DNA of 64,000 nt from an uncultured Actinomycetes bacterium (GCA_963700295.1 CAVOWY010000005.1:17405-81404); one strand, 5' to 3'; shown: positions 590-63,325, counted from the first letter of the stretch. The notes: generated by a model from the letters alone, not told the origin. Numbers and translations: made by a program.

Positions 590-2314
590 CTAGAACACCT
601 CCCCGGCCTGCATGAGGAAGTGCTCGAGAACCGGCCCCAGCGAAAGCGCTGGGAAGAACGTGAGTGCACCCACGATGAGCACCGTGCCCACAAGAAGCCC
701 GACGAACAGCGCCCCGTGGGTGGGGAAGGTGCCCGTGGAAGCCTCGGCTGTGCGCTTCTGGGCGAAGGAACCGGCGATGCCCAGCACCGGCATGATGAAG
801 AGATAGCGGCCGATAAGCATCGCAAGACCGATGCCCACGGTGAAGAACGGCGAGGCCGCGTTCAGGCCGCCGAACGCACTGCCGTTGTTACCCGCGCCCG
901 ACGAGAAGGCGTAAAGAAGCTCGGTCAGGCCGTGCGGACCGGCATTGCCGAGTGCTTCCAGGGCAGAGGGCGTGACCGCTCCGGCGCCGGCACCGACGAG
1001 TATCGTTCCCGAGATCGCCAGCATGGCGAGGATCGTGAGCTGTATCTCACGCGTCTCGATCTTCTTGCCGAGATACTCGGGTGTTCGTCCCACCATCAGT
1101 CCGGCGATGAAGATGGCGAGCAGCGCGAACAGGAACATGCCTGCCAGTCCCACGCCCACGCCCCCGAACACCACCTCGCCGAGCATGATGTTGAGCATCG
1201 CCAGCCCCCCGGCGAGCGGGGTGAGGCTGTCGTGCGAGTTCACGACGGCACCGCACGAGACCGCGGTCGTCGAGGTCGCGTAGAGCGCCGAGCCGCCCAC
1301 GCCGAGCCGCACCTCCTTGCCCTCCATGTTGCCGCCGTCCGTGGTTGCGTAGGAGTGCTGTGCGGCGCCCGCCTGCTCGAGAATGGGGTTTCCGGCGCGT
1401 TCGGCCAGGTACATGCCGGTGAGCGAGAGGCAGAACAGCACGAGCATCGCAGCGAACAGGGCCCACCCCTGGCGCGGGTCGCCCACGAATCGGCCGAACA
1501 TGTTGGTGAGCGCAGCCGGGATAGCGAGCATCGCGATCACCTGAAGCACGTTGGTGACAGGCGTCGGGTTCTCGAACGGATGCGCCGAGTTCGCATTGAA
1601 GTAGCCGCCGCCGTTGGTGCCGAGGATCTTGATCGCTTCTTGCGATGCGACAGGGCCTGCGGGAATCGTCTGGACGCTCCCCTCGAGCGTCTCCACCGCT
1701 GTCGCCGAACCGAGATTCTGGATCACGCCCTGCGAGGCGAAGACGAGTGCGAGCGCGACCGAGAGCGGCAGCAGCACGTAGAGCACGCTGCGGGTGACAT
1801 CAACCCACGCGTTCCCGAGGTCCCTCGTCTTCTGTCGGGACAGGCCCCGGGCGAGGGCCACGGCTACGGCGATGCCCGTGGCCGCCGAGAGGAAGTTCTG
1901 CCACGTCAGGCCGACCATCTGCGTGAGCACACTGGCAGACGACTCTCCTGCGTACGCCTGCCAGTTGGTGTTCGTCACGAAGCTCACCGCGGTGTTGAAC
2001 GCCACGAGTGCGTCCTGGTTCGCGGCCCCTGACGGATTGAGCGGCAGGTACGCCTGCAGCCGGGCGAGCGTGTACAGGATGGCGCCGCCGGCGGCGTTCA
2101 GGATGATGAGCGCGCTCACGTAGCCGACCCAGTTCATCTCGTGGGCCGGATCGATCCGGCACATCCGGTAGATGGTCCGCTCGACAGGTGCGATCACGCG
2201 CGAACGCGTGCTTCGCTCGCCGGAGTAGACCGCGGCGAGGTAGCCGCCGAACGGCCGGGTGAGCAGTGCGACAACGCCGAGCACGGCAATCGACAAAGCA
2301 GCGAATTGGACCAT
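590..2314 (-). CDS. kdpA: Potassium-transporting ATPase subunit KdpA
   Basis: ~575 aa polytopic membrane ORF with KdpA-like sequence throughout (MVQFAALSIAVLG...). Start taken at the internal Met 4 nt after kdpF; the supplied ORF extends further upstream. Confidence 0.9.
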   Translation of the reverse strand: MVQFAALSIAVLGVVALLTRPFGGYLAAVYSGERSTRSRVIAPVERTIYRMCRIDPAHEMNWVGYVSALIILNAAGGAILYTLARLQAYLPLNPSGAANQDALVAFNTAVSFVTNTNWQAYAGESSASVLTQMVGLTWQNFLSAATGIAVAVALARGLSRQKTRDLGNAWVDVTRSVLYVLLPLSVALALVFASQGVIQNLGSATAVETLEGSVQTIPAGPVASQEAIKILGTNGGGYFNANSAHPFENPTPVTNVLQVIAMLAIPAALTNMFGRFVGDPRQGWALFAAMLVLFCLSLTGMYLAERAGNPILEQAGAAQHSYATTDGGNMEGKEVRLGVGGSALYATSTTAVSCGAVVNSHDSLTPLAGGLAMLNIMLGEVVFGGVGVGLAGMFLFALLAIFIAGLMVGRTPEYLGKKIETREIQLTILAMLAISGTILVGAGAGAVTPSALEALGNAGPHGLTELLYAFSSGAGNNGSAFGGLNAASPFFTVGIGLAMLIGRYLFIMPVLGIAGSFAQKRTAEASTGTFPTHGALFVGLLVGTVLIVGALTFFPALSLGPVLEHFLMQAGEVF

Positions 2315-2319
2315 CGTGC

Positions 2320-2412
2320 TCAGAACCTGTCGGGGCGCAGCAGCGTGTACCCGAGGTAGATGATCAGTGCGAGTGCGAACGCTCCCAGCAGAATCGACTC
2401 GGCCACGTTCAT
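2320..2412 (-). CDS. kdpF: KdpF-like 30-aa hydrophobic peptide
   Basis: MNVAESILLGAFALALIIYLGYTLLRPDRF, a single TM helix lying immediately upstream of kdpA. ATG overlaps the stop of the preceding small ORF (ATGA). Confidence 0.6.
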   Translation of the reverse strand: MNVAESILLGAFALALIIYLGYTLLRPDRF

Positions 2413-2495
2413 CGCAGCTTCTCGATCCCCCGGAGGTACCCCGCACACGCCGCTCCGAACAGCGCCAGCATGCCGAACATCATCAGGTCGGTCAT
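2409..2495 (-). CDS. Second small hydrophobic peptide (28 aa) upstream of kdpF
   Basis: MTDLMMFGMLALFGAACAGYLRGIEKLR, preceded by a strong RBS (GGAAGGAGG, 7-nt spacer). Below the 60-aa cutoff of the ORF track. Confidence 0.45.
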   Translation of the reverse strand: MTDLMMFGMLALFGAACAGYLRGIEKLR

Positions 2496-2604
2496 CTCCG
2501 CGCCTCCTTCCAATCGTCTCCCCGAGCGTAGTCCGGGGGTCGTGAAGGGCGCGTGAAGGCAACGCTTGTGCGCGTTAGGAAACCGTGAAGATTGGCCCGT
2601 CCGG

Positions 2605-3297
2605 CTACTTCGTGGAGAAGATGAAGCCCACGCCGGGCTCGGTCTGGACGTACCGGGGTACGCTCGGATGCGCCTCGATCTTCTTGCGGAGATGGCTCAC
2701 GTGCACCCTGAGCGTCTGCCGGTCTTCGGCATACTCAGGACCCCAGACGTGTTCCAGGATCATCCGCGATGTCATCACACGATCGGGGTTGGACGCGAGC
2801 AAGGCCAGGATGTCGAACTCGGTCTTGGTGAGCGCGATCTCGGCCCCTGCTCTGGTCACGCGCCGTCGGGACAGGTCGATCTCGAGGTCCCCCACGGAGA
2901 TCAGGGCAGGCGCGCCTGCCCCGGCGACCGAGCGCCTGAGCAGCGCCCTCACGCGCGCGAGGAGTTCCCCTGCCGAGAACGGTTTGGTGAGGTAGTCGTC
3001 GGCTCCTGCGTCGAGTGCGGCAATCTTGTCCTCGTCGCCGTCGCGGACAGACAGGACCAGGATAGGTGCGGAGATCCAGGCGCGCAGCTCGCCCGCGAGA
3101 TCGATGCCATCGGCGTCGGGCAGTGTCAGGTCGAGCACGATCAGGTCGGGTCTCGCCTCGGCCGCGACACGCACTGCCTCCTCTGCCGAGCCGGCGAGGA
3201 TCACGCGGTAGCCGTGCGAGACCAGCACCGAGCGCAGTGCGCGGCGGATCTGCTCCTCATCGTCGATGACGAGCACACTGGGAGTGGCCTCCGGCAT
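2605..3297 (-). CDS. kdpE: OmpR-family response regulator KdpE
   Basis: REC domain (VLVIDDEEQIRRAL...DLIVLDLTLPDADG) plus winged-helix C-terminus (RLRKKIE...YVQTEPGVGF). RBS GAGGAGA upstream of ATG 3297. Sits between the kdpD-like gene and kdpFAB. Confidence 0.85.
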   Translation of the reverse strand: MPEATPSVLVIDDEEQIRRALRSVLVSHGYRVILAGSAEEAVRVAAEARPDLIVLDLTLPDADGIDLAGELRAWISAPILVLSVRDGDEDKIAALDAGADDYLTKPFSAGELLARVRALLRRSVAGAGAPALISVGDLEIDLSRRRVTRAGAEIALTKTEFDILALLASNPDRVMTSRMILEHVWGPEYAEDRQTLRVHVSHLRKKIEAHPSVPRYVQTEPGVGFIFSTK

Positions 3298-3307
3298 CAC
3301 CGTCTCC

Positions 3308-4861
3308 TCATGCAAGGGGCAGCGAGAACAAGAACCTGCTGCCGTGCGGTTCGACGTCCTCGATCCACACCGTACCACCGTGACGTGCGACGATCTCCTT
3401 GGTGATCGCCAGGCCGAGCCCGGTACTGGACTGACTGCGCGGTACGTGCGCGCTCCGGTAGAACTTCTGGAAGACCGCCTCGCGCTCCTGCTGGGGGATA
3501 CCGGGACCCCGGTCTTCCACCCATACGATCACGGCGTCACCGAGCACGCGGGCGCCGATCCTCACCCGCTCAGACTCCGGCGAGTAGGCGAGCGCGTTGT
3601 CAATGAGGTTGTGCAGCGCGCGGGCGATCTGGCGGAAGTCGCATCGGACGAGCGGCAGGGACTCCTCGACCGAAAGCTCGATGCGATCGTGCGTGCGGGC
3701 CGGCATGCTCGCCAGAACGCTCCCGATCACCTCGCCGATCTCGTAGTAGTCGGGCTGCATGTCCCACGCGGCGTTCTCGAGGCGTGACATGTCCAGCAGG
3801 TCGGCGATGTTCGCCTCGAGGCGACGGAGGTCTCCGACGACGGCGTCGAGCTCCTCGGAGACGGCGTGCGACAGCTGATGAGGGCCGTCTGACGACTCGA
3901 GCAGGCCCGTCACCGTTGCCATCGCAGAGGAAAGTGGCGTCTTGAGCTCGTGCGAGACCGAGTTCACGAAGGCGGTCTTCAGGTTGTCGATCTCCGTAAG
4001 CGCCTCGAGGTCGGCCGCGCGCCCGCGCAGGCGGTCGTGTTCGAGATGTGCGGTGAGTGCCCGCGCGATCGCACGGGCGAGCCGGACGGCGCGATCCCCG
4101 GACTCCTCAGCGCGCAACGCGATGTAGAGCACGCCGAAGACGGACTCGGGACCCATGAGCGGGAGGAAGAGCAGCATGGCCTGAGCTGCGGCTGCGGTCT
4201 TCCCGGGACGCGGTTCCACGGTCTCCAGGGGCTGTGCGGAGCCGAAGGACTCGGCTGCAGACGCCTCGATCTCGCTCGGCCATGATTCAGGCTGGGGCCG
4301 CCATGTGCGGTTGAATCCGCCCTCGGTGCGTGCCAGGTAGAGCGCGCACTCCAGGGGGAGGAGGGCTTCCCTCACCCGATCGAGGACGACGTCCGGGATC
4401 TCAGTGGCCGGCGGGGGTGAAGCGAGCTCGCCCAACAACCGGTTGAGCAGGCGAGCCTCGGTCTCGCGGGCCATCGCGTCGTGCTCCCTGCGGCGACGCA
4501 CCGCCGTCTGGAGACCCACTACGCTGCCCACGAGCAGGAAGACGGTGAGGTCGATCCACAGCGACGGGCGGGCGATGCGGAAGGTGTAGTACGGCGGGAT
4601 GAAGAAGAAGTTCCATGCGCCGAACGATAGGAGTGCGGCTGCGATCGCAGCGCGCTCGCCGGCGAGACTCGCGGCTGCAACGACCGCGAGCACGTACCAC
4701 AGGCCCCACTGGGTCTCACCCTGGGCGTTCTGCCAAGGCATCAGGACCGCCGTCCACGCGGCCACGATGAGGACAGCGGTCATGAGGGGGTGGGCCGAGG
4801 TCCACTCGTTCAGGGTTCTCCATGAGCCGGACTTCACGTCCCCGTGACCCAGCGCGACCAC
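3308..4861 (-). CDS. kdpD: KdpD-like sensor histidine kinase, short form lacking the N-terminal KdpD/Usp sensor domain
   Basis: 4-TM segment, a GAF-like region, HisKA (SHELKTPLSS) and HATPase_c (GGTVWIE). 517 aa against ~890 aa for canonical KdpD. RBS GAGGGGG 11 nt upstream of GTG 4861. Confidence 0.8.
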   Translation of the reverse strand: MVALGHGDVKSGSWRTLNEWTSAHPLMTAVLIVAAWTAVLMPWQNAQGETQWGLWYVLAVVAAASLAGERAAIAAALLSFGAWNFFFIPPYYTFRIARPSLWIDLTVFLLVGSVVGLQTAVRRRREHDAMARETEARLLNRLLGELASPPPATEIPDVVLDRVREALLPLECALYLARTEGGFNRTWRPQPESWPSEIEASAAESFGSAQPLETVEPRPGKTAAAAQAMLLFLPLMGPESVFGVLYIALRAEESGDRAVRLARAIARALTAHLEHDRLRGRAADLEALTEIDNLKTAFVNSVSHELKTPLSSAMATVTGLLESSDGPHQLSHAVSEELDAVVGDLRRLEANIADLLDMSRLENAAWDMQPDYYEIGEVIGSVLASMPARTHDRIELSVEESLPLVRCDFRQIARALHNLIDNALAYSPESERVRIGARVLGDAVIVWVEDRGPGIPQQEREAVFQKFYRSAHVPRSQSSTGLGLAITKEIVARHGGTVWIEDVEPHGSRFLFSLPLA

Positions 4862-6305: not shown

Positions 6306-6433
6306 AGCGCGCGACCGGCCGCTCCGCTCACCGACGCGAAGTACCATCTGCCGACCAGCCGTCGCCGAAGCGCGTTCGGCGGCACTATACTGGGCACGCT
6401 CGCGCTCCCATCGTCGTCCGAGGAGGCTCGTCC

Positions 6434-7039
6434 GTGACCGATCAGGCAGATATCCCGTTCCCGCACTATCGCTGTGGCGAGTGTGGCAAAGACCTCCCAC
6501 TCACGGAGGCCCGACTTACCGTCACGTGCGACGGGCATCAGCCCGGTAGGGGCGATGTGGCCGTGGAGGTGCGTCCTTCCACGCGCGCCGACCGTCACGA
6601 TATCGAGGACATCTGCGATCAGGCGCTCGGAGAGACCGACGTCGATGTGTTCGGACGTTCGTTTGACGTGCTGCGCCAGGAGAACCTCGTCGCCGTCTCC
6701 GAAGGCCGTTTCGCGGGTGTCGTCTCGCTTGCGGTGGATGGGGGCGACCTGGCGGTCGTGTTGCTGAGCGTGTTCCCCGGCTTCCAGGGCCACGGCGTTG
6801 GCGGCGCGCTTCTCGACGCCGCGGTGAAGGTTGCCGCCGACCGCGGTCTGCCCGGCGTGAAGGCGGCGATCAGCAATGACGATGTGCCGTCGTTCTCCTT
6901 CTACCAGCGGCACGGCTTTGTGATCGACTCGGTGGCCAAGGGCCTGCTTGCGGACCGCTACGGCTCCGCCGAGCCTGGCTTCTCAGGGATTCGCGTGCGC
7001 GACGAGATCCGCCTTCGGCGTTCGGTGGGCCCGGCCTGA
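6434..7039 (+). CDS. GNAT N-acetyltransferase with an N-terminal Cys-x2-Cys zinc-ribbon-like segment
   Basis: RBS AGGAGG then GTG 6434. RCGECGK motif, then an acetyl-CoA-binding-like QGHGVGGALL and a C-terminal YQRHGF. Confidence 0.6.
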   Translation: MTDQADIPFPHYRCGECGKDLPLTEARLTVTCDGHQPGRGDVAVEVRPSTRADRHDIEDICDQALGETDVDVFGRSFDVLRQENLVAVSEGRFAGVVSLAVDGGDLAVVLLSVFPGFQGHGVGGALLDAAVKVAADRGLPGVKAAISNDDVPSFSFYQRHGFVIDSVAKGLLADRYGSAEPGFSGIRVRDEIRLRRSVGPA

Positions 7040-7097
7040 GCTGCGCGCTCGGGTGAGCTGCCCCGGACAGCGGTGCTCCGGATAGTCCACGGTCGTT

Positions 7098-8261
7098 CTA
7101 AGGCAGCGCGGCGACCGGGTGGCAGTTCATGCACAGGCCGTCGGTGTAGCCCGTGGTCGAAGCCTCCACGAGGAGCCGGTAACCGGTGGTCTCGTGGGGG
7201 AAGTTCTGGAATCGCGGATTGTCCGTTGCTACGGTGCCGTCGGCCTTCGTCACGATCGCTGGGCTCGGACTGGCCTGGGTGCCGTCCGTAGACAGCGAGC
7301 CTACGTCACGTGTGTCCTCGTGGCACTGCTGGCAGATCGGGTAGTGCCCCGCCTGCGCCCCCGTGCGCGGGTAGGGCATCAGGTAGGCCCGGTTGTACTG
7401 GTTGGCCAACTTGGTGTCGATCCCGGCGGGCCCCAGAACCGTGCTCGCTGTCGGATACGGGCCGGTGCCGACGATGCCGAGCTCCCGGTAGTTGTAGGGC
7501 ACATATGCCGGGTCGCCCGAGGCTACAAGGGAGTCAACGGGATGGTTGTGCGTGCTCAGTCCGGACGGACGGCCCGCATGGCAGGCCGCACACCAGTCTG
7601 AGCCGTACTCCTGCACGGGCGTAGTCGCGCCGCCGGGCGAGCGCTTCAGCAGACGGTTCTGGACCTGCACAGGCACGATGCCGTTGTGCACCATGTTCAC
7701 GAAGCGGGCTGCGCGCTGACGCTCGCCGAGGAAGGGCGTCACACAGTCGGACCCATGCGGCGAGTGGCAATCCGAGCAGGTCAGGGTGCCGTTGATTCCC
7801 GAGAATGCCATCGTCGCACTCCCGCCGTTCGAAGCGCTCCCGCCGGGAACCACGTTCGTGGTGTCGACGCTGTGATCGGCACCGACGGTCATTCCCCGGC
7901 CTGCTATCGCGCCGTACACGCCCTCACCGATCGTGGCGGTGCCGTCGTGGCAGGTGAAGCACGTTGCCGTGATCGTGGCCGCCGGCAGGAGCTTGGCGTT
8001 GGCCACAGGCGCGTCATGGATGGTGTGGCACTCCTCGCACTTGCTGGTGGTTGTGAGGTATCCGCCGTGCGGTCCGAACTTGGCCCCGTCAGTGGTAATC
8101 GACCCCATCCATGGGTCGTGGCAGGTCCCGCAGTATGCTGCGCTCGACGGAGGCTTGGGCAGGGGGAGGGTCTCGTCGTAGGCGAACGCACTTGTACAGC
8201 CGACCGCGAAGGTCAGGCACAACGCCGATACGAACACACCTCTTCTATTCCATCGCCGCAT
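7098..8261 (-). CDS. Secreted multiheme c-type cytochrome with 7 CxxCH motifs
   Basis: Signal peptide with a possible lipobox (LTFAVGC). Motifs CGTCH, CEECH, CFTCH, CSDCH, CAACH, CQQCH, CMNCH. Confidence 0.85.
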   Translation of the reverse strand: MRRWNRRGVFVSALCLTFAVGCTSAFAYDETLPLPKPPSSAAYCGTCHDPWMGSITTDGAKFGPHGGYLTTTSKCEECHTIHDAPVANAKLLPAATITATCFTCHDGTATIGEGVYGAIAGRGMTVGADHSVDTTNVVPGGSASNGGSATMAFSGINGTLTCSDCHSPHGSDCVTPFLGERQRAARFVNMVHNGIVPVQVQNRLLKRSPGGATTPVQEYGSDWCAACHAGRPSGLSTHNHPVDSLVASGDPAYVPYNYRELGIVGTGPYPTASTVLGPAGIDTKLANQYNRAYLMPYPRTGAQAGHYPICQQCHEDTRDVGSLSTDGTQASPSPAIVTKADGTVATDNPRFQNFPHETTGYRLLVEASTTGYTDGLCMNCHPVAALP

Positions 8262-8271
8262 GGGGCCCCCG

Positions 8272-8307
8272 CATCACACGCCGTGGGGTCAAGCATAGCG
8301 TGTGATG
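8272..8307. promoter_or_regulatory. Perfect 10-bp inverted repeat (CATCACACGC-N16-GCGTGTGATG) between the last receiver gene and the cytochrome gene
   Basis: Seen directly in the sequence. Could be a terminator hairpin for the upstream operon or an operator for the cytochrome gene. Confidence 0.3.
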
Positions 8308-8353
8308 CTGCCCGCGAGAATAGCTGAGCGCACATTAATCGCCGCGCGGCGAA

Positions 8354-8746
8354 CTAGCCCGCGGTGCAGCTCGGTCCCGCCAGCATGCGCTCGACGTGCG
8401 CGCGCAGGTCGCTCGGCGTGAACGGTTTGGTGAGGTAGTCGCTACAGCCGAGCGACGCGCCGTGCTCGAGGTCCACCTTCTGCGCGGCCGTCGTGAGCAT
8501 CATGACGGGCACTTCTGCCGTCTCGGGCCGCAGCCGCAGGAAGTGCAGGACTTCCCAGCCATCGAGCTTGGGCATGGTCACGTCGAGCAGAATGAGATCG
8601 GGCGTGCGCTCGAGGGCGAGTTCGAGCGCCTGCTCGCCGTCCACGGCCTCGATGAGCTCGTGCCCGAGCGAGCGTAGCGCCGCCTTCACGAGCATGCGGA
8701 TCTGCTGGTTGTCGTCAGCGGTGAGTATGAGCCGTTCGGCTGCCAC
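8354..8746 (-). CDS. Single-domain response regulator (CheY-like receiver)
   Basis: D-D-K receiver motifs (LTADDNQQIR, LILLDVTMP, YLTKPF). Confidence 0.8.
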   Translation of the reverse strand: MAAERLILTADDNQQIRMLVKAALRSLGHELIEAVDGEQALELALERTPDLILLDVTMPKLDGWEVLHFLRLRPETAEVPVMMLTTAAQKVDLEHGASLGCSDYLTKPFTPSDLRAHVERMLAGPSCTAG

Positions 8747-8781
8747 ATCTGCCCCTTGTGAGTGACGGTCGGATGGTCTCT

Positions 8782-9237
8782 CTAGTCGCGATCGCGATGC
8801 ATGATCTCCACGATCTTGTTGAGCTTGGCTTCGCGGCTCCTGCGCTCACGCTCGTGCTCGGCACGCCGTGCCGGATCCAGCATCGCCGAGATGTGATCGG
8901 CCACTTCCGAAGGCTTGAACGGCTTGGGCAGGTAGTCGCTGAACGGATCAGTGGCAATCTCCCGGTGCTGCTCTTCGAAGGTGCCCGCGGCCGAGAGGAA
9001 CAGGATCGGAAGTTCCTTGGTCTTGGGGTCCTGGCGGAGCTTGTCGTGGACCTGATGGCCGGTCATGCCCGGCATCATCACGTCGAGGACCACGAGGTCC
9101 GGCTTCTCGGCAGCAACCACGCCGAGCGCCTGGAGCCCGTCTTCGGCCTCGAGGACTTCGAACCCACGGCCCGTTAGGGCCACCTTCAGCAGTCTCCGGA
9201 TCGACGACTCATCGTCGACAACGAGAATCCTCTTCAT
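8782..9237 (-). CDS. Single-domain response regulator with a charged C-terminal tail
   Basis: ILVVDDESSIR, LVVLDVMMPGMTG, YLPKPF. Confidence 0.8.
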   Translation of the reverse strand: MKRILVVDDESSIRRLLKVALTGRGFEVLEAEDGLQALGVVAAEKPDLVVLDVMMPGMTGHQVHDKLRQDPKTKELPILFLSAAGTFEEQHREIATDPFSDYLPKPFKPSEVADHISAMLDPARRAEHERERRSREAKLNKIVEIMHRDRD

Positions 9238-9255
9238 GCGCAGACGTCCCTTCCC

Positions 9256-9621
9256 CTAGGTGCCGAGGATCTCCCCGACCCGCTGACACAAGTCTTTCGG
9301 CGTGAATGGCTTGCAGATGTACTCGCAGGCCCCCCCGGCCAGCCCCTCTTCGACCTCGGTGCGCTGGCTCTTTGCGGAGAGCATGATCACCGGTATGTGT
9401 TCCGTTGCCGGATCGGCCTTCAGTTTATTGAGAACCTCGTACCCTGTCATCACCGGCATCATCACGTCGAGCAAGATCAGGTCCGGGATCTCGGCGTGCG
9501 CCATATCGTATGCTTCGCCGCCGTCCGTGGCCTGCAGGACTTCATACCCCCTGTTCGCGAGGGTGAACGACACCAGCTTTCTGATGTGCGGTTCGTCATC
9601 TGCGATGAGGATCCGGGTCAC
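9256..9621 (-). CDS. Single-domain response regulator
   Basis: ILIADDEPHIR, LILLDVMMPVMTG, YICKPF. Start overlaps the stop of the upstream hybrid kinase. Confidence 0.8.
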   Translation of the reverse strand: MTRILIADDEPHIRKLVSFTLANRGYEVLQATDGGEAYDMAHAEIPDLILLDVMMPVMTGYEVLNKLKADPATEHIPVIMLSAKSQRTEVEEGLAGGACEYICKPFTPKDLCQRVGEILGT

Positions 9622-11801
9622 CGTGCCTCATCCTCCGTCATGACCGACTCCACACGCGTGACGAATGCCTCGACATCGAATGGTTTGCTCACGCGCTCCG
9701 TCGCCAGTGCGAGCACGTCAGACCGTTCGCGATCGATCGGGTACGCGGACATGATGACCACGGGAATGTCCATGGTCTCCTCGCTTGTCTTGAGTTCCTC
9801 GAGGACCGCGTAGCCGTCCATGACCGGCATCCGCAGATCGAGCAGGATGGCGTCCGGCTTGGCGCGCTTGACGGCGGCCATCGCCTCGCGTCCGTCGTAG
9901 GCGCCCATCACCGTGTAACCGCGCTGCTTGAGTGTGTGACAGAGCAGGTCGACGATCTGCTTGTCATCGTCCACCACCAGGACCACGGGTGCAGCGATCG
10001 AACCCACGAGGCCGTCGATCACGCCGATCAGCCGGTCCTTGTCGATCGGCTTCTCGAGATAGCCGGCCGCGCCGCACCGTTCGCTCTTGCCCTCATCGCA
10101 GATGATCGACAGCACCACCACAGGGATGTCCCGAGTGGCGGCATCTCCCTTGAGCTTCTTGAGCAGCTGGAACCCGGCGCCCTCGTCGAGCATCACGTCG
10201 AGCGTGATCACCCGCGGCTCGAGCTCTACCGCATACTCCCACGCTTCGCCGGCCGTGAACGCCTTGACCACCTCGTAGCCGCGGCGCGACAGATAGGTGG
10301 CGATGAGATTCGCCACGTCTTCGGAGTTGTCGACCACGAGTACCCGACCGCCGGGGGAGCCGAGCGGGCCTTCGAGCGCAGGGGTCCGCACATGCTTGTC
10401 CGAAGCGAGCGGCAACTCGAACCAGAACGTGGAGCCCTCTCCCTCGGCGCTCTTCACACCCACGCGTCCGCCGAGGAGCTCGATGATGCTCTTGCAGATG
10501 GACAGACCCAGGCCGGTGCCGCCGATCTCGCGCGTGAGCGAGGAGTCGACGCGGTAGAACTTGGTGAAGAGCTTGCCCTGGTCCTCCGCTGCAATGCCGA
10601 TGCCCTGGTCGGTGATGCTCACTCGCACCATCTTGTCCTCCACGGAGGCACGTACGTGCACGTCGCCGCCTTCGGGTGAGTACTTGATGGCGTTGCTGAT
10701 GAAGTTGATGAGCACCTGGCCCACGCGATCGGGGTCTCCCGCAGCGAGCGGGAGGTCCTCCGGGACGTCGGCGTGGATCGTGCGTCCTAGCTGGTCGAGC
10801 ACGGCCCTGAACGTGTTGACGGCACCGGCTACACGCTCGGCCACATCGAGGGGCTGCACCTTGAGGACGATGCGGCCGCTCTCGATGCGGGAGATGTCCA
10901 GCATGTCGTTGATGAGGTCCACGAGCCGGTCGGAGTTCTCCTTGACGATGCCGAGGAACTCCTGCTGGATCTCGTTCACCTCGCCGGCCTCGCCGTCGAG
11001 GATGAGATCGATGTAGCCCTTGATCGATGTCAGCGGCGTGCGCAACTCGTGGCTCACGGTGGACACGAACTCGTTCTTCATCTGCGTCGCCTCGCGCTCG
11101 GCGGTGACGTCGCGGATGTTGGTTATGGCTCCAAGGTAGCTGCCATCGTCATCGAGCACCGGGTCCACCCGCACGTCCACGATGCGGTGCTCCGGCTCCT
11201 CCATGCGGACCTCGCGGAGCTGCGTGCCGGTCTCGCGCACCGTGCCCTCGGGATCCGCGGCCAGACGGAATACCTTCCATGTGTCCGTGACGAGACCCAC
11301 GAGCGCCTCCGCGCCGATGCCCAGGATGCGTTCCGCAGCCGGGTTCACGAAGGTGATGCGGTCCTCGGCGTCGAAGACCACGATCCCGTCGCTCGTGCTC
11401 GTGAGGATGGCTTCCGAACGCCGTCGCACGGCGGTGATCTCGGTGTTGTCCCTGATGGTGACGACCGCGCCCCACGCGATGCCGTCGACGTAGGGGGTCA
11501 CCGTGAAGGTGTAGTCGTTCCCGTTGAGCTCGCACTTGGAGACGACTGCGGCCTGCTGGTCGAGCGCCTCACGGAGCGCGGCATTGAGCCCACAGACGCC
11601 CAGCCCGTCGATCGGGGTGCCGACACACTCGTTCCGTACGACGCCGAGCATGGCCGAAGCGGCCTCGTTGATCATGCGGACCGTGCGATCGGGCGACACG
11701 GCGATCATGCCTTCGCTCGTGCCGGCCAACAGCGCCCTGATGTGCGAGTAGCTGCGCCGTTCGTTGCTGTCGGGCACCGAACACCACCTCCGTTTGGGCA
11801 T
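9618..11801 (-). CDS. Hybrid sensor histidine kinase: PAS domains, HisKA, HATPase_c and two C-terminal receiver domains
   Basis: HELRTPLTSIKGY (H-box), GGTGLGLSICKSI (G2), then two REC domains (VLVVDNSED.. and VLVVDDDKQ..). Confidence 0.85.
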   Translation of the reverse strand: MPKRRWCSVPDSNERRSYSHIRALLAGTSEGMIAVSPDRTVRMINEAASAMLGVVRNECVGTPIDGLGVCGLNAALREALDQQAAVVSKCELNGNDYTFTVTPYVDGIAWGAVVTIRDNTEITAVRRRSEAILTSTSDGIVVFDAEDRITFVNPAAERILGIGAEALVGLVTDTWKVFRLAADPEGTVRETGTQLREVRMEEPEHRIVDVRVDPVLDDDGSYLGAITNIRDVTAEREATQMKNEFVSTVSHELRTPLTSIKGYIDLILDGEAGEVNEIQQEFLGIVKENSDRLVDLINDMLDISRIESGRIVLKVQPLDVAERVAGAVNTFRAVLDQLGRTIHADVPEDLPLAAGDPDRVGQVLINFISNAIKYSPEGGDVHVRASVEDKMVRVSITDQGIGIAAEDQGKLFTKFYRVDSSLTREIGGTGLGLSICKSIIELLGGRVGVKSAEGEGSTFWFELPLASDKHVRTPALEGPLGSPGGRVLVVDNSEDVANLIATYLSRRGYEVVKAFTAGEAWEYAVELEPRVITLDVMLDEGAGFQLLKKLKGDAATRDIPVVVLSIICDEGKSERCGAAGYLEKPIDKDRLIGVIDGLVGSIAAPVVLVVDDDKQIVDLLCHTLKQRGYTVMGAYDGREAMAAVKRAKPDAILLDLRMPVMDGYAVLEELKTSEETMDIPVVIMSAYPIDRERSDVLALATERVSKPFDVEAFVTRVESVMTEDEAR

Positions 11802-11884
11802 ACCTCCACACGGGACTATTCGGGTTAGTCACCCTGAATCCTGCCGGTCGCTCGATCGTCCCCGCCCGGTCTGGAACGGGAAAC

Positions 11885-11910
11885 GGGAGCGGATCGGCGG
11901 TCCGCTCCCG
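11885..11910 (-). terminator. GC-rich hairpin (GGGAGCGGA-TCGGCGG-TCCGCTCCC) downstream of tRNA-Arg
   Basis: 9-bp perfect stem seen in the sequence, with only a weak T-tract. Confidence 0.3.
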
Positions 11911-11921
11911 TCATGTCCGTG

Positions 11922-11997
11922 TGGTGCCCCCTGCTGGAATCGAACCAGCGACACCAGGTTTAGGAAACCTGTGCTCTATCCCCTGAGCTAAGAGGGC
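11922..11997 (-). tRNA. tRNA-Arg (anticodon CCT), CCA encoded
   Basis: Manual cloverleaf: acceptor GCCCTCT/AGGGGGC, D-arm GCTC..GAGC, anticodon stem CAGGT/ACCTG with loop TTCCTAA, T-arm GCTGG TTCGATT CCAGC. Confidence 0.75.
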
Positions 11998-12108
11998 GCG
12001 TGGCGCTCGCTAATGGTACCCGACTCAGCACCGCGGCTCCACCTCGGCGTGCGTGCCTGCACGGGCGGGTATGAACCCGACAAGCGCGACACGAGGAGGC
12101 GCCGGGCA

Positions 12109-13110
12109 GTGGACCGACGCGAGTTCTGCCGCATCGCACTGGGCTGCACGGTCGTGGGCTGCGTCGGCGGCCTCGCGGGGTGCGCGCGCCTGCTCGAGTG
12201 GTCGGCGCAGGACACCGGCGAGGGCCGCAGCGCCGCAATGGCCGAGCGCCCCGACGTCGCAACCGAGACCGTGGAGGCCACCGCAGCACCCGAGCCCGTG
12301 CCGCCTCCGCCCGATCTTGCGGTCTTCCGGGGCGAGGACCCGGCCGCCAACACGCGAGCGGCCATCCTCGCCCTCGGTGGCATGGAGCGGTTCGTGAAGC
12401 CCGGCGCCCGCGTGGCGATCAAGCCCAACATCGTGACGGGGCGCGAGCCGCAGTACGCCACCAGCACGAATCCGGAGGCGCTCGCCGAGGTCGTGCGGAT
12501 GGCGCTCGAGGCGGGTGCGGCCGATGTGATCGTCTTCGACCGTCCCACGGGCGACCCGTATACCTGCTACCGGGTGAGCGGCATCCAGGCCGCGGTCGAG
12601 GCGGCGGGTGGCTCGATGAAGGTGCTGACCGACCGCAACTTCGAACGCATCGACATCCCGGGCGCACGCGCGCTTGCGTCGTGGCCGCTCGTGACAGACG
12701 TGTTCGAGGTCGACACCTTCATCAACATGCCGATCGCAAAGCACCACGGGATGGCCATCCTCACCATGGCGATGAAGAACCTCATGGGCATCATGGGCGG
12801 CGAGCGCGGCGAGATCCACCAGGAGTTCCAGCACAAGATCGTGGACCTCGCCACGATCGTGCAGCCGCACCTCGTGATTCTCGACGCGTATCGCATCATG
12901 GTGCGCAACGGCCCCACCGGCGGCTCGCTCGACGATGTCGAGACGCCCAAGACAGTCGTCGCCGGCACCAACATGCCGTCGGTGGACGCGTACGGGACCA
13001 CGCTGTTCGGCATGCAGCCCACCGACCTCGACTACCTGCGTAACGCCGCCGAGCGAGGCCTCGGCGTGATCGACCTGGCGGCGCTCGTCATCCACGAGGG
13101 GACGGCGTAG
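12109..13110 (+). CDS. DUF362-domain protein with a Tat signal peptide
   Basis: RBS GAGGAGG 9 nt upstream of GTG 12109. N-terminus MDRREFCRIALGCTVVGCVGGLAGCA is a twin-arginine signal. The rest matches DUF362-like sequence (IKPNIV..., AKHHGMAILTMAMKNLMG). The supplied ORF start at 12013 is probably too far upstream. Confidence 0.65.
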   Translation: MDRREFCRIALGCTVVGCVGGLAGCARLLEWSAQDTGEGRSAAMAERPDVATETVEATAAPEPVPPPPDLAVFRGEDPAANTRAAILALGGMERFVKPGARVAIKPNIVTGREPQYATSTNPEALAEVVRMALEAGAADVIVFDRPTGDPYTCYRVSGIQAAVEAAGGSMKVLTDRNFERIDIPGARALASWPLVTDVFEVDTFINMPIAKHHGMAILTMAMKNLMGIMGGERGEIHQEFQHKIVDLATIVQPHLVILDAYRIMVRNGPTGGSLDDVETPKTVVAGTNMPSVDAYGTTLFGMQPTDLDYLRNAAERGLGVIDLAALVIHEGTA

Positions 13111-14625
13111 ATGTCCGAGTCGTCCCGTCACGGCATCCACCGCGTTCGGCGGTACCTCCAGCTTGGCTTCCTGCTGCTGTTCGTCATGCTGCTCGCCTTC
13201 ACCGTGTGGCCGCTCGGCGACGTCTATCTCGGGGCGTTCCTCGTCGGTGACCCGCTCGTGGCGCTCAACTCGGCGGTCAACGGCGTGCTGCGGCCGGAGA
13301 TGTGGCTCGCTCTCGTGATGCTTACGGTTCCGCTGGTGCTCGGCCGTGCGTTCTGCGGCTACGTGTGCCCGATGGGCGCGATCATCGAATGGGCCTCGCC
13401 GAAGGAGCGGCGCCACGGCCTATCGGATGCCGGACGGGAGAAGTGGCGCCGGGTGCCCGTGTTCGTGCTGCTCGTCTCAGCCGGCATGCTGCTGTTCGCG
13501 AGCGGCGCCTATCTGGTGTTCGATCCGCTTGCCACGATCACCCGCACCGCAACCGCACTGCTCTTCCCGTTCATCGACCGCATGGTGCGGCTCGCGGGCG
13601 ACATCCTGTACCTGGTGCCGGCCTTCCGCGGGAGCGTGGATACGGCCACTACCGCACTCGCCGGTCGGATCATCTACGCCGCGCCGCGGGTGTACGGTCT
13701 GTCGATGGCCGTGCTCGGCATGCTGCTCGCGATGCTTGGCGTGAACCTCGTGGAACGGCGCTTCTGGTGCCGCTACTTGTGTCCGCTCGGCGCTCTGCTT
13801 GGACTCGTGGGTCGGTTCGGGATCCGCAACCGCGTGGTGGATGCGGACGCCTGCATCTCGTGCGGGGCGTGCGACCGCGTCTGTCCGCTCGACGCGGTAC
13901 GGGACGGCTACCATGCCACGGACACGTCCCGCTGCCAGCTGTGCATGGAGTGCGCGGAAGCCTGCCCGCCCGATGCGATATCGATCGGCATGCGGCCGAA
14001 GAAGTCGCTCTACCGGCCGTCACGGCGTGCGTTCGTGGGCGGCGCGGCGGCGGGGCTTCTCGCCGGCTTCTTCACCTTCACCGGGCTCTCGCGGCGCACG
14101 CCCGACCGCCACCTCGTGCGTCCGCCCGGTACGGGAGCCGAAGGCCGCACCCTCGCGCTCTGCACCCGGTGCGGCCAGTGCATGAAGGTGTGCCCAACCA
14201 ACGTCTTGCAGCCGTCGTTCTCCAAAGCGGGCCTCGAAGGCTTCTTCACGCCGGAGATGGACTACCGGGTGGGCAACTGCGACTGGGCGTGCGCCGAGTG
14301 CGGCAAGGTCTGTCCGACGGGCGCCATCGAGCCGCTCGAGCTGCCTGAGAAGCGCGAGACCATCATCGGCCGCGCCTACATCGACACCACTCGCTGCATC
14401 CCGTGGACCGACTACCGCAACTGCCTGGTGTGCCAGGAGCTGTGCCCAATACCGGACAAGGCCATCGTCTTCACCGAAGACGAGGTGACCACGCCCGAGG
14501 GCGAGCCTCTCGTGGTGAAGCGTCCGCATGTGGTCGTCGAGCGCTGCATCGGCTGTGGCGTCTGCGAGTTCCACTGCCCCGTGCCGAGGGAGTCGGCGAT
14601 ACGCGTACGTGGCAATACGGCGTGA
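13111..14625 (+). CDS. NapH/MauN-like membrane-bound polyferredoxin (4Fe-4S)
   Basis: TM helices with RAFCGYVCP and CRYLCPLGAL motifs, plus several CxxCxxCxxxCP ferredoxin clusters. ATG overlaps the upstream stop. Confidence 0.8.
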   Translation: MSESSRHGIHRVRRYLQLGFLLLFVMLLAFTVWPLGDVYLGAFLVGDPLVALNSAVNGVLRPEMWLALVMLTVPLVLGRAFCGYVCPMGAIIEWASPKERRHGLSDAGREKWRRVPVFVLLVSAGMLLFASGAYLVFDPLATITRTATALLFPFIDRMVRLAGDILYLVPAFRGSVDTATTALAGRIIYAAPRVYGLSMAVLGMLLAMLGVNLVERRFWCRYLCPLGALLGLVGRFGIRNRVVDADACISCGACDRVCPLDAVRDGYHATDTSRCQLCMECAEACPPDAISIGMRPKKSLYRPSRRAFVGGAAAGLLAGFFTFTGLSRRTPDRHLVRPPGTGAEGRTLALCTRCGQCMKVCPTNVLQPSFSKAGLEGFFTPEMDYRVGNCDWACAECGKVCPTGAIEPLELPEKRETIIGRAYIDTTRCIPWTDYRNCLVCQELCPIPDKAIVFTEDEVTTPEGEPLVVKRPHVVVERCIGCGVCEFHCPVPRESAIRVRGNTA

Positions 14626-43999: not shown

Positions 44000-45281
44000 A
44001 TGAGCGATCAGGCGGTCGACTACCACCCGATGTGGGCCGAGCTCGGACTCGACCTGCCCACCCACGATGCGCTGCTCGGTGCGGTCGGACAGCTCTTCGG
44101 CGACGCGTACCTCACGCAGGAGAACCGCCCCGAGGGCATGGACTACCTCAACTTCGTGATGAGCGAGGTCCACGGCCTGCGCATCAAGGAGCTCGACGAC
44201 TTCCGCAAGTCCGGCGGCAAGGTATTCGGCACGTTCTGCCTGTACGTGCCCGAGGAGATCATCCGCGCGGCAGGCGGCTGGTGCGTGGGCCTGTGTGCCG
44301 GCGCCGAGTTCGGCTACGACCAGGTCGAGCAGATCATGCCGCGCAACACCTGCGCGCTCATCAAGGCATCGATGGGCTTCAAGCTCGCGCAAGGTGTGCC
44401 CGTACATCGAGTCGGCGGACCTCGTGATCGGCGAGACCACGTGCGACGGCAAGAAGAAGGCGTACGAGCTGCTCGGCGAACTCCACAACACGTGGGTGAT
44501 GGAGCTGCCGCAGATGAAGCGGCCCGAGGACGTCGCGATGTGGAAGGCCGAGATTCGCGAGCTGGTGAAGAAGGCCGAGGAGCTCACCGGCAACACCATC
44601 ACCGCCGAGAGCCTGCGCGCGTCGATCAAGGAAGTGAACGACAAGCGTCGCGCGCTGCAGCGCATCGCCGCGGCGTGCAAGGCCGCCCCGGCGCCGATCA
44701 GCGGCAAGGATCGTCTGCTCGCCACCCAGGTGGCCTTCTACGACGACGTCCCGCGCTTCACCACGATGATGAACGCGCTCGCAGACGAGCTCGAGGACCG
44801 CGTGGCTGCGGGCGAGGGCGTGGCTCCCAAAGAAGCGAAGCGCGTGCTCGTGACCGGTACGCCGATGGCGCTGCCGAACTGGAAGCTCCACGACATCATC
44901 GAGAAGGCGGGTGCCGTGGTGGTGGCCGAGGAGATGTGCACCGGCAGCCGCTACTACTCGCAGCTGGTTACCGAAGACGGCGCCTCGCTCGACGAGATGC
45001 TCGACGACATCGCCGAGAAGTACCTCGACATCAACTGCGCGTGCTTCACGCCCAACAAGGGCCGCATCGACGACGTGGTGCGCATGGCCAAGGAGTACGG
45101 CGCGGACGGCGTCATCGACTACTCGCTCCAGTTCTGCGGCCTCTACGAGATGGAGAGTCACGGCGTGGAGGCAGCCGTCCGCGAGGCAGGGCTGCCGGTG
45201 CTGAAGATCACCACCGACTACTCGATGGAAGACGTGGGCCAGCTCGCCACGCGCGTCGAGGCTTTCCTCGAGATGCTCTAG
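44000..45281 (+). pseudogene. HGD-D-family 2-hydroxyacyl-CoA dehydratase / double-cubane-cluster-type protein, with one frameshift near 44390
   Basis: N-terminal part in ORF 43973 and the remainder in ORF 44295. IGETTCDGKKK motif. Paralog of the gene at 52240-53418. Confidence 0.7.
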
Positions 45282-45285
45282 GCGC

Positions 45286-46032
45286 ATGCGGGTCCTCGGA
45301 CTGGATATCGGTTCCCGGAGCGTGGATGCGGTCTGGCTCGAAGATGGCCGGATCGTGGACTGGGCGGTGGCCGACTCGGGTTTCGACCCCGGGTCGGCCG
45401 CGGCCGTCTTCGTCGATCGTGGCGTGCACGATGCGATCGTCTCCACAGGCTACGGCCGCCATGCGGCCAAGGAGCGCTTCGGCGGGTCGGCGGTGACCGA
45501 GATCACCGCATACGGACTTGGCGCGTGGGCGCTGTTCCCCGAGGCGGCCTCGGTGCTCGACATCGGCGGCCAGGACACCAAGGTGATCTCGCTCGGGCAC
45601 TGCGGCCGCGTGGTGGATTTTGAGATGAACGACAAGTGCGCGGCCGGCACCGGCAAGTTCCTCGAAGTGATGGCCCGCGCGCTCGGCTACACGCTGGAGG
45701 AGATGGCCGACGAGGCACTTGCCGCCGAGAGCGGTGTGGCGATCTCGAGCATGTGCACGGTGTTCGCCGAGAGCGAGGTCACCGGGCTCGTGCATCGCGG
45801 CGAGGACCGCGCTCGCATCGCCCGCGGGCTGCACGACGCGATCGCCAAGCGCACGCTCGGCTCGCTCAAGCGGGTCAACGCCCAGGGGCCGCTGGTGTTC
45901 GCCGGCGGCGTGGCCAAGAACCCGGCGATGGTGGCACTGATCACCGGGGGATTCACGGGCGACGTGTGCGTGCCCGCAGAGGCGCAGATCGTGGGCGCGT
46001 ACGGGGCGGCGCTGTCCGCGGCCGAGGGGTGA
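45286..46032 (+). CDS. HgdC/BadF/BcrAD-type ATPase activator (ASKHA fold)
   Basis: LGLDIGSRSVDAV, DIGGQDTK, C(x)AAGTGKF (cluster-binding Cys) motifs. Confidence 0.85.
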   Translation: MRVLGLDIGSRSVDAVWLEDGRIVDWAVADSGFDPGSAAAVFVDRGVHDAIVSTGYGRHAAKERFGGSAVTEITAYGLGAWALFPEAASVLDIGGQDTKVISLGHCGRVVDFEMNDKCAAGTGKFLEVMARALGYTLEEMADEALAAESGVAISSMCTVFAESEVTGLVHRGEDRARIARGLHDAIAKRTLGSLKRVNAQGPLVFAGGVAKNPAMVALITGGFTGDVCVPAEAQIVGAYGAALSAAEG

Positions 46033-52239: not shown

Positions 52240-53418
52240 CTAGATCATCTGCTCCACGAACGCCTCGATGCGCGTGCGCAGCTGGCCGAGGTCCGACTCG
52301 GAGTAATCGGTCTCGAGCTTGAGGTACGGCAGCTTGAGGACGTCTCGCGTGTAGCGCCCCACCTCTACCGACTCAACGTTGAAGGTGTGGCAGCTCTGCC
52401 AGACGGTGTCGATGACGCCGTCCACGCGGTAGTCGACCACGCAGCGACCGAGGAGCTCGGTGCGCCCGTTGTTCGGGCTCATGCATGCGCACGGGATGCC
52501 GAGCGTGTGGCGTGCGAGCGCCTCGAACGGATCGCCGTCCTCGTCGATCACGCGGTCGTACATCTTGATGCCGCTGCACGCGTCGTGACACACGACGTGT
52601 GCCCCCGCCTCTTCGGCGAGGCGCATGACCTTGTTCGTCTCCGGTGCCATGGGCGTGCCGGTGACCAAGATGCGCGGCCGGGCCGGAGCGGTCCGGGACT
52701 CGGCACGCCGCGCCGCGGACTCCTCCTCGAGCACTGAGATCAGTTCGCGCAGCTTCTCGTGGTAGGGCTCTTCGTCCACGAGGAAGCCTCCGCCGTCTTG
52801 CACGGTGAGCATCTGGGTCCAGGTCATCGGGGGCTCGTCTTCGGCGAAGAACGAGGCCACCTTCCGAAGGAGCGCAGCGCACTCGTTGGACTCGCGGATC
52901 GCGGCGCGCAGCGATTCCGTGGTGATCGTGCCGCCGGTGGCCTCCTCGACGAACGCAGCAACCCCGCGGATCTCGCTGAGCCACCAGGAGAACGCCGGCT
53001 CAGCACCGTCGCCGCCCGCAAACGGGAGCTGCATCACGTGAACCGGTTTGAGCGCGCGAAGCAGCTCGAAGACCTTCTTCTTGCCATCGCACGTGGTCTC
53101 GCCGATGAGCGCGTCGGAGAAATGGAAGAACGGACAGGTGTCGGTGATCGCGAGACCATACGACGACTTGATGAGCGGGCAGAAGGCCCGGGGGAGATCT
53201 ACTTCCGCCGCGGAGATGGCGTTGTTGTCATTCCCGCACAGCGAGACGGGTATGGCGCCGGCAGCGCGAACGAGTTCGGCCGGCATGAAGCCGCAATAGA
53301 GGCCAACCACTTTCCGGCCGTCGTCCTTCGCGTGCTTGAAGTCGACTCGCGCCCAGTCCGCCATCTCGGCGAACTCCTCCACCAGCGCCGCGATACGCTC
53401 GTTGCCCCCATCCGGCAT
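52240..53418 (-). CDS. HGD-D-family 2-hydroxyacyl-CoA dehydratase / double-cubane-cluster-type protein (intact paralog)
   Basis: IGETTCDGKKK plus conserved Cys positions. 392 aa. Confidence 0.8.
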   Translation of the reverse strand: MPDGGNERIAALVEEFAEMADWARVDFKHAKDDGRKVVGLYCGFMPAELVRAAGAIPVSLCGNDNNAISAAEVDLPRAFCPLIKSSYGLAITDTCPFFHFSDALIGETTCDGKKKVFELLRALKPVHVMQLPFAGGDGAEPAFSWWLSEIRGVAAFVEEATGGTITTESLRAAIRESNECAALLRKVASFFAEDEPPMTWTQMLTVQDGGGFLVDEEPYHEKLRELISVLEEESAARRAESRTAPARPRILVTGTPMAPETNKVMRLAEEAGAHVVCHDACSGIKMYDRVIDEDGDPFEALARHTLGIPCACMSPNNGRTELLGRCVVDYRVDGVIDTVWQSCHTFNVESVEVGRYTRDVLKLPYLKLETDYSESDLGQLRTRIEAFVEQMI

Positions 53419-53525
53419 GAGCCGTCCCCCTGTCTCGACGTGTCATATTGTTTGCTGATTGTATCAATCAGCGATGTAGATATAAACTCGGGGTGCGCAC
53501 CAGCTTCGCCCCGGCAGGAGTGCTC

Positions 53526-54939: not shown

Positions 54940-55121
54940 CGCGCGGGCGATTAGCCCCCCCAACCGGGCGGAACACTCACTGTGTACGCACGCGACCGCC
55001 TCTGAGGCCGGCCGCGTGCTCGGTGTACCCTGACGGCGGCTGTCGGGGGCGCCGCAGGGCCCGGCGTTCTGGATCGGACAGTGAGGGGCACGGGCGGGCA
55101 GCCCGCGTGAAGGGAGCGACC

Positions 55122-57480: not shown

Positions 57481-57500
57481 CTGCACGAGAGGAGCCGACG

Positions 57501-59507: not shown

Positions 59508-59552
59508 GCCGAGACGGGCGAGTTCGAGGGGAGCTGGGATGAGGTCCGAAGG

Positions 59553-61214: not shown

Positions 61215-61252
61215 GGGTGCGGGCGGGGAGCTCGCTCGGAGGGAGTCGTGGC

Positions 61253-63274: not shown

Positions 63275-63325
63275 GGAAGACGGCACGCCCCGGGGAGGAG
63301 GCGTGCCACGGGGGAGGTGGCAGCG

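Follow-up and report, generated by a model that had tools for sequence, protein, structure and literature searches.

We analysed a 64-kb stretch of DNA from an uncultured Actinomycetes bacterium (GCA_963700295.1, CAVOWY010000005.1:17405-81404; the whole stretch is hereafter called the window), in which the gene of a hybrid histidine kinase is followed on the minus strand by three genes for stand-alone receivers (REC1, REC2, and REC3) and one for a secreted cytochrome with seven CxxCH motifs. These five same-strand open reading frames (ORFs) lie at the coordinates given in the initial annotation of this DNA (Table 1), and both the ORFs and the Pfam matches bear out its description of a single unit with a PAS hybrid kinase and five receiver (REC) domains in total, two fused to the kinase and three standing alone. 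That annotation overlooked the likely redox partners of the cytochrome, a DUF362 protein and a membrane polyferredoxin encoded just upstream at 12013-14625. With moderate confidence, we interpret the cytochrome as an accessory extracellular electron carrier, which has the DUF362/polyferredoxin pair as its likely donor and on which the phosphorelay acts at most via co-transcription.

Table 1. Features of the kinase-receiver-cytochrome locus and its surroundings, in window coordinates (L172 is the sister genome GCA_030652115.1)
Feature	Position	Strand	Basis
GNAT acetyltransferase, convergent with the cytochrome gene; conserved backbone neighbour	6422..7039 (start approximate)	+	Pfam
1.3-kb segment absent from L172: cytochrome gene, the gap 5' of it, and the final 8 sense codons of REC3	7050..8378		blastn breakpoints, junction sequences
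Sec-secreted heptaheme c-type cytochrome, 387 aa	7098..8261	-	seven CxxCH motifs; Pfam; AxA site
Inverted repeat in the REC3-cytochrome gap, 12 paired positions, 10-bp core CATCACACGC ... GCGTGTGATG	8271..8308	-	sequence, fold
REC3, stand-alone receiver, 130 aa	8354..8746	-	Response_reg 6e-26
REC2, stand-alone receiver, 151 aa	8782..9237	-	Response_reg 1.4e-25
REC1, stand-alone receiver, 121 aa	9256..9621	-	Response_reg 3.7e-29
Soluble hybrid histidine kinase PAS-PAS-HisKA-HATPase_c-REC-REC, 727 aa	9618..11801	-	Pfam
12-bp GC-rich hairpin followed by UUU; likely tRNA terminator and 5' boundary of the kinase transcription unit	11882..11912	-	RNA fold of 11802-11921; terminator role inferred
tRNA-Arg (anticodon CCT), directly 5' of the kinase gene	11922..11997	-	ARAGORN; Rfam tRNA 64.5 bits
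DUF362 protein, predicted Tat-exported lipoprotein, candidate redox partner	12013..13110	+	Pfam DUF362 3.9e-47
2.5-kb segment absent from L172: DUF362 and polyferredoxin	12102..14596		blastn breakpoints, junction sequences
Membrane polyferredoxin, NapH-NapG-fusion-like, 504 aa	13111..14625	+	Pfam Fer4 families; hydropathy, motifs

Pfam matches the cytochrome to Paired_CXXCH_1 (2.1e-15; 56.5 bits against a cut-off of 20.6) and Cytochrom_c3_2 (8e-9). Its seven CxxCH motifs, already noted beside the last receiver in the initial annotation, are conserved far beyond chance: across 115 aligned homologues, two first cysteines are kept in 114 and the remaining motif residues are invariant. Six distal histidines outside the motifs (H65, H82, H130, H169, H240, and H356) are likewise invariant in these homologues, and position 238 is a His in 86 of them and a Met in 17 (103 of 115 combined), a pattern typical of an axial ligand. 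The conserved distal ligands suggest that all seven hemes may be six-coordinate, which would fit an electron carrier rather than an enzyme. An AlphaFold2 model of the protein reached a pLDDT of 81 and a pTM of 0.82; no structural match was found for the cytochrome, and an exact-sequence look-up returned no record. No other multiheme ORF was seen in the 64-kb window, and we found no experimental study of any member of this heptaheme family in the literature.

Hydropathy places a hydrophobic segment at residues 9-27 of the cytochrome and detects no further one. A conserved A-x-A followed by [FY]-[DN]-E-[TS] marks a signal peptidase I site, a prediction made from the sequence only. The possible lipobox proposed earlier does not hold up, and a lipoprotein anchor was rejected: Cys22 is present in 7 of the 115 homologues and the residue at -3 is Ala, with the AxA site conserved instead. 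No membrane or cell-wall anchor motif, be it a transmembrane segment, a lipobox, or another, was seen in the protein. Both the mature N-terminus [FY][DN]E[TS] and a C-terminal LP are strongly conserved in the family. The secreted cytochrome plausibly serves extracytoplasmic electron transfer, as was originally suggested.

In the kinase, Pfam detects PAS (1.8e-12), PAS_4 (3.5e-14), HisKA (2.4e-22, residues 241-309), HATPase_c (1.7e-32, residues 355-466), and Response_reg (2.5e-39) in two stretches at residues ~487-600 and 607-717, the latter being the better-scoring. According to NCBIfam its core resembles PnpS/WalK/PhoR, and the second PAS domain is similar to the one that WalK has in the cytoplasm (4mn5, E 9e-7). 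A membrane-bound sensor kinase was considered and rejected, as hydropathy gives no transmembrane segment.

All three stand-alone receivers and their orthologues possess the acidic pair, the phospho-accepting Asp, the Thr/Ser, the Tyr switch residue, and the Lys-Pro; in REC1 the conserved residues are DD, D, S, Y, and K. Throughout REC1-REC3 the motif is KPF..P..L, unlike the FATGUY-type motif (cf. PMC9981736). Orthologues at the syntenic loci described below share 62-79% identity for REC1, 65-84% for REC3, and 62-85% over the three receivers. Because each receiver has its own orthologue at this level, the three are old paralogues and not recent copies. The persistence of each as a separate orthologue whose active site and switch residues are intact argues for the stand-alone receivers being more than redundant phosphate sinks. 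REC2 carries a C-terminal tail of ~30 aa (LDPARR..ERER..REAKL..IVEIMHRDRD) that is conserved among orthologues, and its full-length homologues measure 148-154 aa and reach down to 42% identity. This tail (residues ~120-151) is a charged helix ending in IMHRDR[DE] with an invariant His, and is far too short for an HPt domain.

Pfam reveals no DNA-binding or other output domain in the proteins of the unit and no HPt domain in any of the five at E <= 0.01; a classic His-Asp-His-Asp relay was rejected, since the unit contains no HPt domain. Among the syntenic loci, no additional small gene that could be a candidate phosphotransferase is conserved in the cluster. Neither in the window nor in the annotated syntenic loci does the cluster have a gene for CheA, CheW, or a methyl-accepting chemotaxis protein (MCP) beside it, the remaining window having been read by eye only. 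The kinase would probably phosphorylate the three receivers directly, and these would act through protein-protein contacts.

The order kinase-REC1-REC2-REC3-cytochrome recurs in relatives. We found it in 10 loci, designated here by our own locus numbers: the window, L001 (GCA_030017365.1), L005 (GCA_032942435.1), L008, L009, L010, L086, L090, L091, which is partial and counted nonetheless, and L166, which is Parvivirga hydrogeniphila. Kinase identity across the syntenic loci bearing a cytochrome is 58-74%. When genome contigs were scanned with the kinase sequence alone, only four of the matches were true orthologues; the others were unrelated hybrid kinases of 26-44% identity. Loci from the Gaiellales hold hybrid kinases with several nearby receiver genes and without a cytochrome. 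Loci differ in how many cytochromes accompany the kinase operon: four stand in tandem in L005 (8822-13535), and L086 has one on either side of the module (2271-3386 and 7001-8119), so that one of them is 5' of the kinase. Housekeeping genes further downstream (GNAT, HAD, Kdp/MgtE) are likewise syntenic, GNAT in L001, L005, L008-L010, L086, L090, L166, and L172, so that part of the conservation of the cluster is simple backbone inheritance. The L010 contig (JADIIM010000043.1) is labelled "Aeromicrobium sp." but carries an Anaerosomatales-type cluster with a kinase 74% identical to that of the window; it is probably mis-binned or mislabelled.

The module also exists without the cytochrome. Five loci reached via REC2 homologues (L167, L170, L171, L169, and L172) hold all or part of it and no CxxCH-rich ORF; a sixth, L168, was too partial and is left out of this count. 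L167 and L170 each have a kinase 52% identical to that of the window and all three receivers, followed in L167 by a REC-PAS-HD-GYP gene and a second kinase (Pfam) and in L170 by a PAP2 gene on the opposite strand. L171 has a short kinase with no PAS domain (62% identical), REC2, and REC3, and then the ABC transporter/HAD/MgtE backbone as in L001; L169 has REC1 (68% identical) and REC2, and then GNAT. L172, finally, has a kinase 98.9% identical to that of the window and the three receivers, with GNAT directly after. A conservation pattern of its own for the cytochrome, named in the initial annotation as a sign against a link with the phosphorelay, is what these five loci reveal. Together with the missing output and HPt domains, they weaken the proposal made there that the phosphorelay may regulate the cytochrome. 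The kinase and receivers form an autonomous module that predates its association with the cytochrome. Genes for REC-(PAS)-HD-GYP phosphodiesterases were seen in L167 (4214-5602), beside the module, and in L002 (11160-12287), convergent with a cytochrome paralogue; such neighbours may hint at a cyclic di-GMP (c-di-GMP) output for the receivers.

Over their shared backbone, L172 and the window are ~95% identical in DNA, and their receivers are 95-98% identical in protein. As the most telling case, L172 lacks exactly two window segments, one holding the cytochrome gene and the other the DUF362 and polyferredoxin genes (Table 1), and deletion scars are left in its sequence. In L172, ~90 nt from the start of the DUF362 ORF remain and run straight into the final codons of the polyferredoxin gene, and therefore the DUF362-polyferredoxin event was a deletion in L172; for the cytochrome, outgroups show that its presence is ancestral. 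A metagenome fragment (L088) matches the window cytochrome at 98% identity over the C-terminal part and includes the adjacent GNAT gene, which indicates that the cytochrome-bearing variant also exists in nature. The deletion sites in L172 lie at 10860-10894 for the cytochrome segment and at ~7113-7127 for the DUF362-polyferredoxin segment. About 15 bp of L172 align to both flanks of the larger deletion, and an origin of this deletion via short homology is suggested by the alignment.

In one subclade, the 3' end of the operon carries the cytochrome as an accessory gene, in 1-4 tandem copies, and the module can persist when this gene is lost. The signalling operon is independent; the cytochrome is an optional addition to it and not clearly its target. 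The signalling operon of L172 is unchanged with the cytochrome deleted, which is a caution against inferring regulation from adjacency.

The DUF362 protein contains, as read from its sequence, a twin-arginine motif (DRREF) and an LAGC lipobox; its homologue in L094 has RRDF and LSGC. The polyferredoxin consists, in this order, of four NapH-like transmembrane segments with CxxCP, two [4Fe-4S] motifs, SRRAF, a fifth transmembrane segment, and a NapG/NapF-like cluster domain. Its NCBIfam matches to NapH/MauN (1.5e-27, 96.7 bits against a cut-off of 213) and NapG (2.9e-22, 79 bits against 269) are both below the cut-off. The SRRAF twin-arginine motif before the fifth transmembrane segment resembles that of actinobacterial polytopic Fe-S proteins inserted by Sec and Tat jointly. 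In L094, genes for a DUF362 protein (68% identical), a polyferredoxin (63%), and a cytochrome paralogue are collinear, with gaps of 1 and 105 nt, and the polyferredoxin homologue shares the layout of the window protein.

A partnership of the cytochrome with the DUF362/polyferredoxin pair is more likely than control by the phosphorelay. The cytochrome would carry electrons outside the membrane, to Fe(III) or other extracellular acceptors, and its most likely donor would be the Tat-exported DUF362 lipoprotein together with the NapH/NapG-like polyferredoxin, which are encoded divergently just upstream. The phosphorelay, for its part, would influence the cytochrome at most through shared transcription. 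Several points weigh against this interpretation. The link between the pair and the cytochrome comes down to a single co-loss and a single collinear locus, and the other nine kinase-linked cytochrome loci have no DUF362/polyferredoxin pair within the flanks examined. Both co-transcription and the donor-acceptor relations are drawn from gene order alone. L172 is a contig of a metagenome-assembled genome (MAG), and its deletions could in principle reflect strain mixing in the assembly; its junctions, however, are clean. Lastly, the position of the cytochrome after REC3 is conserved across kinase identities of 58-74%, which leaves room for a real regulatory coupling. Going further, and only as a speculation that we consider unlikely to be correct, the Tat-exported DUF362 lipoprotein, the NapH-NapG fusion inserted by Sec and Tat, and the secreted heptaheme cytochrome might constitute a compact, undescribed electron-export route of single-membrane Actinobacteria, variable among strains, with the phosphorelay operon being merely a conserved landing site between its parts. 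In such a route, electrons drawn from either the quinol pool or Fe-S clusters of the cytoplasm would reach Fe-S clusters on the outer side of the membrane and then the cytochrome.

The cytochrome family is small and restricted to its lineage, forming 151 clusters at the 50% identity level (E <= 1e-30) in a set of 1.84 billion representatives. At least 693 homologues of the window cytochrome were found, and individual genomes hold several of them. Its genomic contexts were drawn from 80 metagenome loci. A neighbour-joining tree, built without bootstrap support, separates clades by genomic context, with all kinase-linked cytochromes in one clade along with a few relocated copies. Another clade, of seven-heme proteins, is found beside NHL-repeat proteins, 14-heme fusions, and ~19-heme giants, and an eight-heme clade is found beside Rieske/FeThRed-B fusions, FdhE-like proteins, and cytochrome b561. 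The nearest relatives of the window cytochrome, in L087 and L002, are located after dnaG-rpoD; among its closest relatives only three (61-63% identity) follow the kinase-receiver module, and the closer L087 (66%) does not.

Within the unit, the start of REC1 overlaps the stop of the kinase gene by 4 nt, and the following gaps measure 18 nt (REC1-REC2), 35 nt (REC2-REC3), and 92 nt (REC3-cytochrome). The tRNA-Arg gene is also found 5' of the kinase in L172. In the window, the hairpin between the kinase gene and this tRNA gene would terminate the tRNA transcript, so that a fresh transcription unit would start at the kinase. The inverted repeat in the last gap stops ~9 nt short of the cytochrome ATG; it is not conserved in relatives, and the fold of the entire 92-nt gap is not significant (z = -1.0). 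A consensus promoter and terminator scan of 6900-12100 gave nothing useful.

We think it unlikely that the phosphorelay is dedicated to extracellular respiration, such that the PAS kinase would sense the redox or energy state and, via the receivers, control the production, secretion, or use of the cytochrome. The genes do share one strand with short gaps (40-113 nt) and no predicted intrinsic terminator, and their order is kept in the 10 loci despite differing upstream neighbours. The accumulation of extra cytochromes at the same site (four in L005, two in L086), the single clade formed by the kinase-linked cytochromes, and the presence of the cluster in an obligate Fe(III) reducer would also be in keeping with such a dedicated role. 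However, no protein of the unit has an output or HPt domain, the sister copies of the window cytochrome sit after dnaG-rpoD, and the synteny that extends to GNAT, HAD, and Kdp/MgtE is partly backbone inheritance. The five loci in which the module has no cytochrome, down to the nearly identical L172, speak against it as well.

We are similarly doubtful of a coincidental neighbourhood, in which the cytochrome would have its own promoter, unrelated to the phosphorelay and to the DUF362/polyferredoxin pair, at a site permissive for the gain and loss of accessory genes. The strong hairpin of 12 paired positions in the 92-nt gap could uncouple transcription, the unchanged operon of L172 lies between two independent indels, and members of the cytochrome family occur in at least four unrelated contexts. 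A mere coincidence would nevertheless have to accommodate a cytochrome that stays after REC3 over a wide divergence of the kinase, and the co-loss with DUF362-polyferredoxin and the collinearity in L094, although two data points only, exceed what is expected of unrelated genes.

Polymerization of the cytochrome into an extracellular heme filament, a nanowire like OmcE or OmcS, is compatible with the other readings and would explain the usefulness of an unanchored secreted protein to a single-membrane cell, and it could draw on the missing anchor motifs, the conserved mature N-terminus and C-terminal LP, the match of the family profile to OmcE (E 6e-6), and the OmcE-like proteins with extra hemes proposed as new nanowire families (bioRxiv 10.1101/2025.10.22.684050), but we hold it to be highly improbable, as the OmcE similarity is partial and at the level of motifs, MtrA scores better (1e-7), the hemes number seven against four in OmcE and six in OmcS, no structural match was found, and the conservation of seven distal ligands would also fit a closed monomer.

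The named sources of homologues are MAGs of Anaerosomatales, Coriobacteriia, or Actinomycetota. The window, with a GC content of 63-72%, bears an actinobacterial PknB / RodA-PBP / PP2C / FHA cluster, and we assign the region to an Anaerosomatales-type (OPB41) Coriobacteriia genome. According to the description of the order Anaerosomatales (PMC9686372), published in 2022 with the isolates Anaerosoma tenue and P. hydrogeniphila, both isolates carry 17-18 multiheme cytochromes together with cytochrome c biogenesis genes, a role in Fe(III) reduction is proposed for these cytochromes, and P. hydrogeniphila is an obligate Fe(III) reducer. A multiheme cytochrome is thus expected here and not surprising, and the idea that such proteins are rare in this background, with which the locus was first presented, gives way before these numbers and the at least 693 homologues of the family. 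No cytochrome c maturation genes (CcsAB/ResBC, CcdA) are encoded within the 64-kb window. The window cytochrome comes from the same lineage and the same protein family as the published repertoire, and the orthologous kinase-REC1-REC2-REC3-cytochrome cluster of P. hydrogeniphila includes a cytochrome 64% identical to it. The available part of the published description mentions neither a kinase-receiver-cytochrome cluster nor a link to a phosphorelay (PMC9686372), and in the literature on phosphorelays linked to multiheme cytochromes we found no description of such a cluster.

Elsewhere in the window, at 44163-46032 and 52240-53442, translations that were only read resemble components of 2-hydroxyacyl-CoA dehydratase or benzoyl-CoA reductase together with an activator; these gene sets would fit an anaerobic lifestyle. 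On the plus strand at 54795-64000 lies a run of large secreted paralogues ending in repeats of approximately PLYRFYN..NGSHFYTAS..EA..V, and in L087 (4841-5599) a small protein with the same PLYRFYN-type repeats adjoins the cytochrome paralogue.

Respiratory electron export to outside acceptors by single-membrane cells is, to our knowledge, known for only a few Firmicutes, and actinobacterial examples are essentially unstudied. The locus represents a small and defined gene set, made up of the heptaheme family (~150 clusters at 50% identity) and the DUF362/polyferredoxin pair. The availability of two near-identical genomes with and without these genes, and of the cultured P. hydrogeniphila, makes the question experimentally approachable.

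Several known systems can be compared with the parts of this locus. Like OmcE (7tfs) and OmcS (6ef8) of Geobacter, the cytochromes of this family are secreted multiheme proteins of the bis-His type with CxxCHxxH-type motifs. The match of the family profile to OmcE (7tfs_A) covers two heme-motif segments, and no full-length sequence or fold similarity to OmcE or OmcS was found. The profile also gives weak matches to MtrA of Shewanella (6r2q_A) and to OcwA of Thermincola (6i5b, E 1e-4), which have ten and nine hemes, respectively. Against the Pfam MtrC/MtrF domain II/IV family, the whole protein scores 32.3 bits for a cut-off of 30, with no single stretch passing alone. The MtrA system differs further in its MtrB-like barrel partner, which a monoderm would not be expected to have. 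The window showed no other Mtr-type cytochrome.

NapGH passes quinol electrons to a periplasmic c-type cytochrome. The polyferredoxin of the window resembles it in uniting a NapH-like part, with transmembrane segments, CxxCP, and ferredoxin motifs, with a NapG-like poly-[4Fe-4S] part after a twin-arginine motif. Unlike NapGH, these parts are fused in one polypeptide that scores under the family cut-offs and is paired with a DUF362 lipoprotein, and there are no nap genes in the window; it is not a member of the family. We infer for the DUF362/polyferredoxin pair a possible donor role comparable to that of NapGH from its architecture, the co-loss in L172, and the L094 cluster, and from nothing more.

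Systems of one kinase with several receivers include CheA with CheY proteins and phosphate sinks, DivJ/PleC with DivK, and LovK-LovR. The module described here is like CheA-CheY, DivJ/PleC-DivK, and LovK-LovR in combining one kinase with several stand-alone receivers that have no output domain. Unlike these, it has no CheA, CheW, or MCP and no HPt or ChpT-like protein, and its kinase joins a PhoR/WalK/PnpS-like core to two fused receivers.

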